Shown: positions 6,084 through 9,479 of the stretch, one piece after another | How the letters are laid out: the number at the start of each line of letters is the position of its first letter | Position numbering within the stretch: position 1 is the first letter of the stretch | DNA from: Candidatus Helarchaeota ASGARD archaeon Hel_GB_B | GTDB lineage: Archaea > Asgardarchaeota > Lokiarchaeia > Helarchaeales > HEL-GB-B | Reading direction: 5' to 3' | DNA length: 32,000 nucleotides | Assembly: GCA_005191425.1 (NCBI GenBank) | Contig: SUPR01000015.1 | Span: 15,288 to 47,287 of the forward strand | Position numbers and translations under genes: made by a program | Notes under the pieces: model-generated | What the model saw: the letters and a program-made list of their open reading frames with translations, nothing else | What the model was told of the DNA's origin: nothing | Databases searched by the model: none

Positions 6084-7538
6084 TTAATTTTCCAAGATTT
6101 TTTGAAATATTGAAAAATTTTTAAAATCTTTTATGATAAAACCAATTTCCTTAATTTTATCCCTAATTTTATCAGCTAGTTTATAATTCTTTTCATTTCT
6201 TGCTTGATATCTTATTTCCATTAAAATACTAAGTAATTCAAATATCTTTTTATCTTCTTTTGTAGGATATTTGTAAGTTAAAAATAGACCAAGAATTTCT
6301 CCAAAGTCTAGGATCAATTTATTTGCTTTACCAATAAATTCTTTACTGAAAAAAGTTATATTCGCCATATTTTTGTTTATGAATTTGACTAATTCTAATA
6401 ATGCAATCATTGCATTGTGGGTATTAAAGTCATTGTCCATCGCAATAATAAAATCTTTTTCAATTTTGTCTAATAATTCTTTTTCTTCTTTTTTTATGGG
6501 TAAGACTATTTCTTTATCATTAATATTGGTAATAATATTTTGATATTGATTTAAAAAATCTAATGTAAGATAAAATTTGTCCAATGTTCTTTTTGCCACG
6601 CGTACTTGGTCTTCATTAAAATTGATTGGATTTCTGTAATGAACAGATACCAGTAAAAAACGCAATAATTCGGGAGGATATTTTTTAAGTGCATCACGAA
6701 TTGTTATGAAATTTCCAAGTGATTTGGACATTTTTTCACTATCAATATTTACAAATCCATTATGGAGCCAATATTTTACAAAAGGCTTTTTACCAGAATA
6801 TGCTTCACTTTGTGCTATTTCGTTTTGATGATGTGGAAAGATTAAATCCTGTCCACCGCCGTGAATGTCTATATTTTCTCCTAGATATTTCATACACATG
6901 GTTGAACATTCAATATGCCAGCCAGGTCTGCCTTCACCCCAAGGAGATTTCCAAGATGGTTCTCCCTCTTTTTTCTTTTTCCATAATGCAAAATCTTTTT
7001 TATGTCTTTTTTCGCCAATATAAATTTTACACATTGTACCTTTTGAATAATTATCGTCTTTCAGTGTAAATCCAGCTAATTTACCATATTCATCATATTT
7101 TGTTGTATCAAAATAAATATTTCCATCAATATTATAAGCATAACCTTTTTCCAAAAGTACATTTATAACATCGATCATGTCAGGAATAATTGCAGTTGCC
7201 CTAGGATGGTAAACTGCTTTTCTTATATTTAATGGGTGTGTATCCTCAAAATAAGCATCGATAAATTTTTCAGCCAGTTCATGAACAGCCACATTTTCTT
7301 CTTTAGCCCGATTTATCATTTTATCATCAATATCAGTAAAATTCTGGACATAAATTACTTTATAACCTTTAAATTCAAGGTATCTTCTTATCGTATCAAA
7401 AGAAATTAATGATCTTGCATGTCCAATATGGCAATAATCATAGACAGTAGGCCCACAAACATACATTTTAACAATTTTATCTTCAATAGGTTTAAATTTT
7501 TCTTTTTTCTTAGTTAATGTATTATAAACTTTTAACAC
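6084..7538 (-). CDS. cysS: cysteine--tRNA ligase
   Basis: CGPTVY, HIGH, NFTDIDDK, GRPGWHIECS, DLIFPHH.NE, KMSKS. Confidence 0.98.
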   Translation of the reverse strand: MLKVYNTLTKKKEKFKPIEDKIVKMYVCGPTVYDYCHIGHARSLISFDTIRRYLEFKGYKVIYVQNFTDIDDKMINRAKEENVAVHELAEKFIDAYFEDTHPLNIRKAVYHPRATAIIPDMIDVINVLLEKGYAYNIDGNIYFDTTKYDEYGKLAGFTLKDDNYSKGTMCKIYIGEKRHKKDFALWKKKKEGEPSWKSPWGEGRPGWHIECSTMCMKYLGENIDIHGGGQDLIFPHHQNEIAQSEAYSGKKPFVKYWLHNGFVNIDSEKMSKSLGNFITIRDALKKYPPELLRFLLVSVHYRNPINFNEDQVRVAKRTLDKFYLTLDFLNQYQNIITNINDKEIVLPIKKEEKELLDKIEKDFIIAMDNDFNTHNAMIALLELVKFINKNMANITFFSKEFIGKANKLILDFGEILGLFLTYKYPTKEDKKIFELLSILMEIRYQARNEKNYKLADKIRDKIKEIGFIIKDFKNFSIFQKILEN

Positions 7539-7813: not shown

Positions 7814-8113
7814 TTAAAACTTTTTTATCTCCATTTGTTTTTGAATTTCGTCCACTAAAGGTTTTAATTTTTCTGGGATATTTAATGTACTAAATGAAAT
7901 CATGTGTGATTTGTCCTCTTGTTCAACTGTGATATAAATTTGCTCCACATCGGGCATGGGTTGTTCATCTTTGAGTTGTAGATTAAAAAAGTCCGCATTA
8001 GTTATAATATCCTGGAAAAAATCAGCTGTATCTTTAGGTATTTTATCAGTATCTATATTTGCTTCCTTAACTATGCCTGCAAAACCGCCACTTTGAATAA
8101 ATTTAATTTTCAT
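7814..8113 (-). CDS. emfourin (protealysin inhibitor) family protein
   Basis: N-terminal SGGFAG motif, 99 aa, lies 12 bp downstream of an M4 protease. Confidence 0.88.
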   Translation of the reverse strand: MKIKFIQSGGFAGIVKEANIDTDKIPKDTADFFQDIITNADFFNLQLKDEQPMPDVEQIYITVEQEDKSHMISFSTLNIPEKLKPLVDEIQKQMEIKKF

Positions 8114-8125
8114 TTATAAAACCCT

Positions 8126-9190
8126 TTAAATAACCATTACTTCCTTCCAACCTTTAATGACAGCCTCTCTTTCTTGTTCACCCATTTCTTCTGCTATTTC
8201 TATTGAGAGTTTGGCGGCACGTTCAAAATTTGCATTACTATCTAACTTCTGCAACAATTTATACCAAATTAGCCCCACTTTTTCCCATGCATAACCGCCC
8301 AATTCCATTGCAGCTACATAAAAAGCATGGTTCGGAATGCCACAATTTACATGGACACCACCGTTATCTTGATAAATTTCTAAATCTTTATATTTGTCCA
8401 TTGTAGAAGGCTGAGGGTCGGTACCCAATTGAGGATGATTAACATAAGCGGTACCCGGACTTTTAAGTGATCTTATCGCATATTTTTCGCCTATCAATAA
8501 ATTTGCACCTATTAACCAATCAGCTTGGTCTACAGTCTGATTAAGTTTAAACTGCTTGATCATTGACCCAAATATATCTGAAAAAGATTCATTTAAAGCA
8601 CCACTTTGAAATCTATAGATTAGAGCGCATTCATGTTGTGTCACGCCATGTGTTAATTCATGCCCAACTACATCAAGGTCTAAAGTAAATCTATTAAAGA
8701 TTTTACCATCCCCATCACCAAAAACCATCTGCCAACCATTCCAAAATGCATTATTATAGTGATCACCATAATGTACAGAAGCATCTAATCTCATTCCTTT
8801 GTTATCAATTGAATTTCTTTTAAATATAGTATTGTAGAAATCATATGTATCCCCCAAATATTCATAAGCTTCATCGACTTCTTTATCATTAGATAATTTA
8901 TCACCTTCTTTTCTGACTAAAATACCAGGTAAATGTTGCGAGTTTTGTGAATCATAAATATGTCTGATCTTTTTCTTAACAATTTTAACAGGCTTGATTT
9001 TTAATTCTTCCATTAAAAGGTCCCGTTCTTTTTTATGAATAAACCTGACAGATCTTATAAAGTTGTCAATTTTAAATGATAATAAAGCCATTTTACGAAT
9101 TTTACTATCTTTACTCTCTAAGAGTTTGTCTATCATATATGGAGGAATTATTCTACAAAAATCATCATGACAAAAATATTTTTCAATCAT
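8126..9190 (-). CDS. protealysin-like M4 metallopeptidase
   Basis: Short propeptide with IIPPY motif, NAFWNG.QMVFGDGDG, HELTH, GALNESFSD, DNGGVH.N.GIPN. Confidence 0.95.
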   Translation of the reverse strand: MIEKYFCHDDFCRIIPPYMIDKLLESKDSKIRKMALLSFKIDNFIRSVRFIHKKERDLLMEELKIKPVKIVKKKIRHIYDSQNSQHLPGILVRKEGDKLSNDKEVDEAYEYLGDTYDFYNTIFKRNSIDNKGMRLDASVHYGDHYNNAFWNGWQMVFGDGDGKIFNRFTLDLDVVGHELTHGVTQHECALIYRFQSGALNESFSDIFGSMIKQFKLNQTVDQADWLIGANLLIGEKYAIRSLKSPGTAYVNHPQLGTDPQPSTMDKYKDLEIYQDNGGVHVNCGIPNHAFYVAAMELGGYAWEKVGLIWYKLLQKLDSNANFERAAKLSIEIAEEMGEQEREAVIKGWKEVMVI

Positions 9191-9374
9191 TTTTTTCCCT
9201 TTTTTCTAAATTTTGTTAGTAATAAACATTTGTAAATTTATTTATCGATTTTGGATTAAAAAATGTTTATAAAAAGTTTTTAGAGAATTAATTTCTCAAT
9301 AAATTATCTTGAGAAAAAAAGGATATTTTTTAAAGGTTCGGATAAAAATTAAAAAGGATTTAAGTGAAAAAGTA

Positions 9375-9479
9375 AGCTGGTGGTGAGATTCGCACTCACG
9401 TCCACGGCTATCTGAAAAACTGCAGGCCGCTACCTAGCTATAAGTCTACTTATTGAGAAGATTTCTCGGTTACACCAGC
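9375..9479 (-). tRNA. trnC: tRNA-Cys(GCA) with a 10-nt intron at 37/38 (9410-9419) and a ~22-24-nt D-loop insertion (~9440-9463)
   Basis: Reverse complement gives acceptor stem GCTGGTG/CACCAGC with U73, D-stem ACC/GGT, anticodon stem GCGGC/GCCGT, anticodon GCA at 9423-9421 and T-stem GTGAG/CTCAC. The anticodon loop becomes CTGCAGA after removing TTTTTCAGAT. CCA is not encoded. Confidence 0.9.

Follow-up and report, generated by a model that had tools for sequence, protein, structure and literature searches.

A probable tRNA-Cys(GCA) gene with two short introns in an Asgard archaeal genome and its linkage to cysS

How can a gene that carries every stem of a tRNA-Cys, together with a long insertion in the D-loop and ten extra nucleotides beside the anticodon, give rise to a functional tRNA? 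This question is raised by positions 9375-9479 of a 32,000-nt stretch of contig C56, here called the window (the whole stretch of DNA that was analyzed). The initial annotation had described a 105-nt tRNA-Cys gene with intact stems and two interruptions, one in the D-loop and one at 37/38, and analysis of the reverse complement agreed with this description: the acceptor, anticodon, and T stems were all confirmed, exactly 31 nt separate G13 from the 3' strand of the D-stem, where a 7-nt D-loop belongs, and the 10-nt insert TTTTTCAGAT is located at 37/38, where its CAG pairs with C32-U33-G34. For the raw gene, Rfam gave no match at the gathering threshold and just a partial tRNA match (14.6 bits, E=4.3), and ARAGORN, used with and without its intron option, reported 0 tRNA genes in the window. 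After removal of both inserts in silico, a 71-nt RNA was obtained which ARAGORN called tRNA-Cys(gca); its cloverleaf is also the minimum-free-energy fold, and arms of standard size appear only after both inserts have been removed. Together with the conservation of the exons in a sister species of the same genus (G001), these results suggest that the locus is very probably a functional tRNA-Cys(GCA) gene with discriminator U73 and two introns of the EndA type, 24 nt in the D-loop and 10 nt at 37/38. Its predicted parts are as follows.

9375..9479, reverse strand: tRNA-Cys(GCA) gene, 105 nt, from a manual cloverleaf parse and the G001 ortholog (gene position i is window position 9480-i)
9463..9479, reverse strand: exon 1 (17 nt), with the acceptor 5' strand, U8 A9, the D-stem 5' strand ACCG, and A14 G15 A16 A18, kept in comparison with G001 and the intron-less homologs of G005 and G012
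9439..9462, reverse strand: putative D-loop intron (24 nt, gene nucleotides 18-41) at the tRNA A18/G19 junction, with borders predicted from a BHB scan and the G001 site
9420..9438, reverse strand: exon 2 (19 nt), with G19 C20 U21, the D-stem 3' strand AGGT, A26, the anticodon stem 5' strand, and C32-G37
9410..9419, reverse strand: 37/38 intron (10 nt), between G37 and A38, with a bulge-helix-loop motif
9375..9409, reverse strand: exon 3 (35 nt), with A38, the anticodon stem 3' strand, the variable loop GGAC, the T arm, the acceptor 3' strand, and U73
9367..9371, reverse strand: run of five T, 4 nt past the tRNA gene, which may be an archaeal terminator

The acceptor stem (GCTGGTG/CACCAGC) has seven Watson-Crick pairs and is followed by the discriminator T (U73, position 9375), the anticodon stem is GCGGC/GCCGT, and the T stem (GTGAG/CTCAC) belongs to a T arm that reads GTGAG-UGCGAAU-CUCAC. 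The loop nucleotides of exon 2 are C32 U33 G34 C35 A36 G37, with the anticodon GCA at 9423..9421. The variable loop has four nucleotides (GGAC); the D-stem has three pairs and a G13/A22 mismatch, and the same mismatch was found in all homologs linked to the cysteinyl-tRNA synthetase gene cysS. Anticodon GCA and discriminator U73, which are major cysteine identity elements (PMC9976931), are shared with G001 and with 24 homologs linked to cysS. The tertiary nucleotides U8, A14, G19, C56, G53-C61, and A58 are present; at positions 18 and 55, G and U have given way to A18 (9463) and G55 (9393), the latter within a T-loop (UGCGAAU) that had been overlooked in the initial annotation.

The genome (3.54 Mb, 28% G+C, 94% complete) contains a gene of the ESCRT-II (Vps25) family, which was matched by the same search in none of 14 control prokaryotes and which fits an Asgard archaeon, and DNA identical to the locus was found in hydrothermal-vent and marine-sediment metagenomes. 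Just 16 tRNAs were reported in this genome by Rfam. A scan for acceptor and T-arm sequences detected 23 tRNA-like genes, 18 of which are interrupted and longer than a compact tRNA, many of them with D-loop inserts. Two paralogs of the EndA family (PF01974; 98.6 and 75.1 bits) are encoded; when the translations were read by eye, the 192-aa protein keeps the Tyr/His/Lys context and the 198-aa paralog appears to have no His, so that a catalytic (alpha) and a non-catalytic (beta) copy, as judged from these translations, match the (alpha-beta)2 type. In Asgard archaea, (alpha-beta)2 EndA with an L1 loop has been linked to cleavage of non-canonical introns and broad specificity (PMC5829648), which is in line with the relaxed-specificity endonuclease that the initial annotation had called for. 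It had also stated that multi-intron tRNAs are known mainly from Thermoproteales, a view that is outdated since heavy interruption of Asgard tRNA genes has been published: introns were found in 92-95% of tRNA genes in Atabey- and Freyarchaeia (PMC11291895), and tRNAscan-SE overlooked approximately 30% of the inserts, most of which lie in the D-arm (bioRxiv 10.64898/2026.10.13.758758).

At 37/38, the 5-bp anticodon stem serves as the outer helix of the motif and a loop replaces the inner helix. The central helix has three of four pairs (C32-G, U33-A, and G34-C, with a C35/U mismatch), the 3' bulge is A-U|A38, and comparison with shuffled introns gave a P of about 0.04. Introns are located at the same position in G001 (11 nt), G006 (12 nt), G004 (13 nt), and G002 (15 nt), and A38 is preceded by GAT in four of these five genes (the present gene, G001, G006, and G004) and by GAA in G002. 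The occurrence of homologous introns of 11-15 nt in four relatives implies that the 37/38 intron is old and has been short throughout; the only minimum found for comparison is 11 bp, for the red alga C. merolae (PMC3728597). The G006 intron has a perfect central helix (CUGC/GCAG) with the bulges AG|U and AU|A. A rule that cuts after the second nucleotide of each bulge, which was checked on the 37/38 introns of this clade, yields the loop CUGCAGA in G006, identical to that of the uninterrupted tRNA-Cys. Alternative placements in the present gene were examined by removing by hand every other 10-nt window of the 17-nt anticodon region and were rejected; the 37/38 placement was kept because no other choice gives a CUGCAGA loop with U33 and G37, i.e., the loop of a canonical tRNA-Cys copy.

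For the D-loop, two mini-hairpins (GAGAA-ATC-TTCTC and ATAAG-TAGA-CTTAT) had been noticed, and two, possibly nested, introns had been proposed for the gene. Both hairpins are there and constitute the minimum-free-energy fold of the precursor. Two introns are retained in the present interpretation and the nesting is not, as the D-loop insert is best read, on its motif and its orthologs, as a single 24-nt intron. In gene numbering, the central helix consists of G13-U38, A14-U37, and G15-C36 (three of four pairs, one of them G-U, with a C12/A39 mismatch), A16 A17 A18 form an exact 3-nt 5' bulge, and the inner helix is made of U19-A35, C20-G34, and U21-A33; the only outer helix is the adjacent 3-bp D-stem. 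The motif is of the relaxed HBh' type and was matched in just 0.7% of shuffled introns (P of about 0.007). Both introns show just relaxed BHB or BHL motifs, which for the 37/38 insert agrees with the initial annotation. The predicted spliced D-arm is ACCG-AGAAGCT-AGGT, compared with TCCG-AGCAGCT-AGGA in G001, and the 3' exon begins with GCTAG in both genomes.

The same gene and introns could be read with the D-loop borders shifted by 1 nt on each side (cuts after gene nucleotides 18 and 40), which would give a 22-nt intron and the 9-nt D-loop AGAAAAGCU. This register scores equally in a simple BHB scan and has the same two helices plus an extra outer pair (C12-G42); however, the unpaired bulge is exactly A16-A18, for which the rule verified on the 37/38 introns would place the cut after A17, and G001 and the intron-less G005 have 7-nt D-loops, with GCTAG at the start of the G001 3' exon, which makes the shifted register improbable. 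The borders at gene nucleotides 18-41 were therefore preferred on account of the exact 3-nt bulge and the orthologs. A further candidate, a 24-nt intron near positions 7-10 derived from the partial Rfam match (which uses an internal GTA-GACT), was rejected, since no BHB exists there, the D-loop would have no A14, and the orthologs disagree.

The stability of the folds counts against the splicing interpretation: the two mini-hairpins (-30.4 kcal/mol) are favored over the BHB-forming fold (-24.2 kcal/mol) by 6.2 kcal/mol. The incomplete central helix of the BHB-forming fold, with its G-U pair, and the lack of an outer helix apart from the D-stem count against it as well. The insert might instead be retained as a two-hairpin expanded D-arm, or be removed as two or nested introns, and according to a recent preprint a part of the D-arm insertions could be something other than introns (bioRxiv 10.64898/2026.10.13.758758). 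Nevertheless, splicing based on the two mini-hairpins was tried and rejected, as no hairpin-based pair of cuts gives a sensible product or D-arm. In addition, the G001 insert is unrelated in sequence and length and has a strict BHB at the same site, insert-free homologs exist, and a 31-nt D-loop would part A18 from G19 and disrupt the elbow. Retention or nested removal is thus very unlikely, and the two mini-hairpins are a competing fold rather than the splicing structure.

The predicted primary transcript would carry both introns, and the (alpha-beta)2 splicing endonuclease encoded in the genome would cut both. In the D-loop intron (gene numbering), exon nucleotides G13-G15 would pair with the intron, the 5' cut would fall in the bulge A16 A17|A18, and, after the 3-bp inner helix, the 3' cut would follow two nucleotides past the central helix, at U40 A41|G42. 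In the 37/38 intron, C32-G34 would pair with the intron CAG; the 5' cut would be made in the closing loop and the 3' cut in the bulge (A-U|A38). Joining of the three exons (17, 19, and 35 nt) by an RNA ligase would then yield a mature tRNA of 71 nt. Its D-loop would have seven nucleotides and its variable loop four, the G13/A22 mismatch would remain in the D-stem, and A18 would contact G55 in place of the G18:U55 contact; this tRNA may be charged with cysteine.

Comparison with relatives argues that the exons are still in use. The G001 ortholog (138 nt) is interrupted three times, twice by 28 nt (once in the D-loop and once in the 3' strand of the D-stem, between positions 23 and 24) and a third time by 11 nt at 37/38. 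Each of the D-arm inserts forms a strict BHB, in which the central helix is complete (4/4 pairs), both bulges have 3 nt, and the inner helix measures 6 or 9 bp; none of 20000 shuffled introns did as well. The D-loop intron of G001 occupies the same site as the 24-nt intron of the present gene. Application of the cut rule to G001 gives a 71-nt tRNA that ARAGORN also calls tRNA-Cys(gca). Alignment showed that the spliced exons of the two species are identical at 64 of 71 positions (90%), whereas the linked cysteinyl-tRNA synthetases (CysRS) share 66% identity. Four of the seven exon differences are compensatory, at 3:70 (U-A vs G-C) and 10:25 (A-U vs U-A), and the others lie at positions 9, 16, and 57; the 10:25 pair of G001 exists only if its second intron is removed as predicted. 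The introns of the two species are unrelated in sequence and length (24 vs 28+28 nt, and 10 vs 11 nt). Exon conservation with compensated stems argues strongly for purifying selection on a copy that would still be functional.

Uninterrupted members of the family display the architecture predicted for the spliced product. The D-arm of the intron-less G005 homolog is TCCG-AGTGGTT-AGGA, with a 7-nt D-loop, and the uninterrupted A18/G55 homolog of G012 was detected as a tRNA by Rfam with 58.7 bits. No inserts were found in G005 and in many f4 genomes; G002, G004, and G006 have the 37/38 insert only, and G001 has three. In DNA contigs from four other vent or sediment samples, the identical sequence and one G001-type contig were found and no intron-less allele; a metagenome scan with a 30-nt exon-3 pattern gave no match. 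Inserts were also observed at other sites across family members (G029, G039, G016, G008, G009, G031, and G021): position 9-10 is followed by approximately 30 nt, D-loop position 15 by 29 nt, and position 59 within the T-loop by 30-32 nt, and the variable region is extended by 6-9 nt. The different sites point to repeated independent intron gains that may have occurred within one tRNA-Cys family.

The tRNA-Cys is located 1.8 kb upstream of cysS in this genome, and three neighboring genes are relevant here.

8126..9190: M4 protease (protealysin-like), identified by Pfam, between tRNA-Cys and cysS
7814..8113: emfourin (M4 protease inhibitor), identified by Pfam, between tRNA-Cys and cysS
6084..7538, reverse strand (co-oriented with the tRNA): cysS, 484 aa, identified by TIGR00435 (544 bits) and Pfam

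Among the class genomes examined, the M4 protease and emfourin genes separate tRNA-Cys from cysS in this genome alone. In G001, where the neighborhood is otherwise the same, 172 nt separate tRNA-Cys from the downstream cysS; in G002, G004, and G005 the distance is 27-73 nt, which is the usual spacing across the class. The cysS locus was examined in 29 other class genomes, 22 of which have a tRNA-Cys no more than 600 nt upstream, in 20 cases co-oriented with cysS. By this gene order, the interrupted gene represents in this genome a tRNA-Cys/cysS pair that occurs throughout the class, with cysS as its ancestral neighbor. Outside the class, the closest CysRS sequences (approximately 50% identity) belong to Clostridia and other bacteria and to a few Thermoprotei and Bathyarchaeia MAGs, which suggests a possible old transfer of CysRS between bacteria and archaea. 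As a separate observation, exactly one in-frame stop (TAA, TAG, or TGA) occurs within the full-length cysS match in G007, G008, G009, G021, G036, G039, G040, and G041; these single stops could be small inserts or introns, frameshifts, or assembly errors.

Position 55 of tRNAs is near-universally U, and G18:U55 is a near-universal contact of the elbow. In the present tRNA-Cys it is replaced by A18:G55, so that the usual pseudouridine-55 site is lost, which was counted against the functional interpretation. Both positions were scored in 23 genomes, comprising 22 with a cysS-adjacent gene and G006, whose tRNA-Cys is on another contig: 17 have A18 and G55 (UGC T-loop), six have G18 and U55 (UUC T-loop), and none is mixed. 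On the CysRS tree, the 18/55 state needs at least two coordinated switches. Furthermore, when metagenomes were scanned with an 18-nt G55 T-arm pattern, unrelated contigs yielded 23 distinct compact tRNA-like genes. In at least 18 of these the D-loop has AG where GG would be usual, and nine of the 23 are tRNA-Cys(GCA) with A37. The co-variation within the class and its presence in unrelated metagenomic tRNAs imply that A18:G55 is probably a recurrent working alternative and not a lesion. No paper describing A18:G55 was found in the searchable literature, which is not proof of novelty. The G035 gene (on C34), which was ambiguous at 18/55, has a particular structure of its own: it is a 122-nt tRNA-Cys approximately 41 nt upstream of cysS with two consecutive T-arm 5' halves (TGCAAAT and TTCAAAT) and C at D-loop position 18.

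A second tRNA-Cys in the genome, whose existence, together with a lack of expression of the interrupted gene, would have refuted the interpretation according to the initial annotation, was indeed found.

G000:C36:29985-30057 (G000 being the present genome): canonical uninterrupted tRNA-Cys(GCA), 73 nt, Rfam 59 bits

This copy has G18 G19, a UUC T-loop, a U13-A22 pair, and a 5-nt variable loop, and a canonical second tRNA-Cys is also present in G001 (G001:C2:10245-10346) and G003. Its existence means that the interrupted copy is not strictly needed, and the latter could be a decaying redundant duplicate, i.e., a tRNA pseudogene whose work is done by the canonical copy. The relaxed motifs of both introns, the BHB fold not being the most stable one, and the inserted genes that part tRNA-Cys from cysS would all be compatible with decay. 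On the other hand, while introns and flanks have diverged from those of G001 past alignment, the exons have remained 90% identical with every stem change compensated, the GCA anticodon, U73, G19-C56, G53-C61, and U8-A14 are all intact, and A18:G55 is the common state of cysS-linked tRNA-Cys across the class. A pseudogene is therefore quite improbable, and a functional gene with two introns remains the preferred reading.

The presence of two tRNA-Cys(GCA) genes is accompanied by two potential routes of charging, since SepRS (509 bits) is encoded beside CysRS. In Methanosarcina mazei, SepRS and CysRS prefer different tRNA-Cys species (Hauenstein and Perona 2008, as summarized in PMC9976931). As far as that summary goes, the two organisms share SepRS, CysRS, and more than one tRNA-Cys, the two tRNA-Cys(GCA) here differing at 13:22, at 18:55, and in the variable loop; the difference is that the comparison of genes gave no sign here of a partition of the two tRNAs between the enzymes. 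An assignment of one tRNA-Cys to each charging pathway was considered and rejected as a general rule, because SepRS, detected in 25 of the 46 genomes of the class and in each of the seven of the order, is unrelated to tRNA-Cys type or copy number. It was kept as a case of low probability in the following form: the cysS-linked tRNA-Cys and the bacterial-type CysRS might be a co-evolving unit, with a bacterial-like purine mismatch at 13:22 and with A18:G55 as an alternative elbow contact that would remove the pseudouridine-55 site, parallel in this genus to a canonical tRNA-Cys that would mainly serve SepRS/SepCysS. We consider this joint scenario unlikely; if true, a single Asgard cell would have two channels of cysteine charging that are insulated from each other.

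With regard to known systems, introns of this kind have been described before in Asgard archaea, and those found here are not exceptional for the lineage, although no description of this particular tRNA-Cys gene was found in the literature searched. Published Asgard tRNA genes (PMC11291895; bioRxiv 10.64898/2026.10.13.758758) likewise have short protein-spliced introns, several per gene and often in the D-arm, with BHB or relaxed BHB motifs, are often overlooked by standard finders, and occur with (alpha-beta)2 EndA, whereas those studies focus on Freyr-, Jordi-, and Atabeyarchaeia families and this genome probably represents another lineage. The multi-intron tRNA genes of Thermoproteales, as far as they are summarized in the same preprint (Sugahara 2008; Fujishima 2010 via bioRxiv 10.64898/2026.10.13.758758), are similar in having canonical and non-canonical introns per gene, relaxed BHB motifs, and a heterotetrameric EndA, but they belong to another phylum, and the introns described here (10 and 24 nt) are at the short end. 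From the viewpoint of annotation, a cysS-linked tRNA-Cys that is invisible to ARAGORN and Rfam adds a case to the systematically overlooked D-arm introns of Asgard archaea. The gene may also be of use as a small natural substrate for studying how an Asgard (alpha-beta)2 endonuclease recognizes relaxed motifs: it combines a 10-nt bulge-helix-loop intron with a 24-nt intron in the D-loop, in which the fold that can be cleaved has a stabler competitor.

The cysS linkage and the co-variation of A18 with G55 may be more interesting than the introns. For tRNA biologists, they offer a class-wide tRNA-Cys/cysS pair and indicate that A18:G55 can probably stand in for G18:U55, in unrelated environmental tRNAs as well. 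A different replacement was observed in two other tRNA-like genes of this genome (G000:C29:7566-7668 and G000:C165:692-795), which have C55 (T-loop TCCGAAT); the gene on C165 keeps G18 G19. Judging from these sequences, position 55 seems to be unusually free in this lineage.
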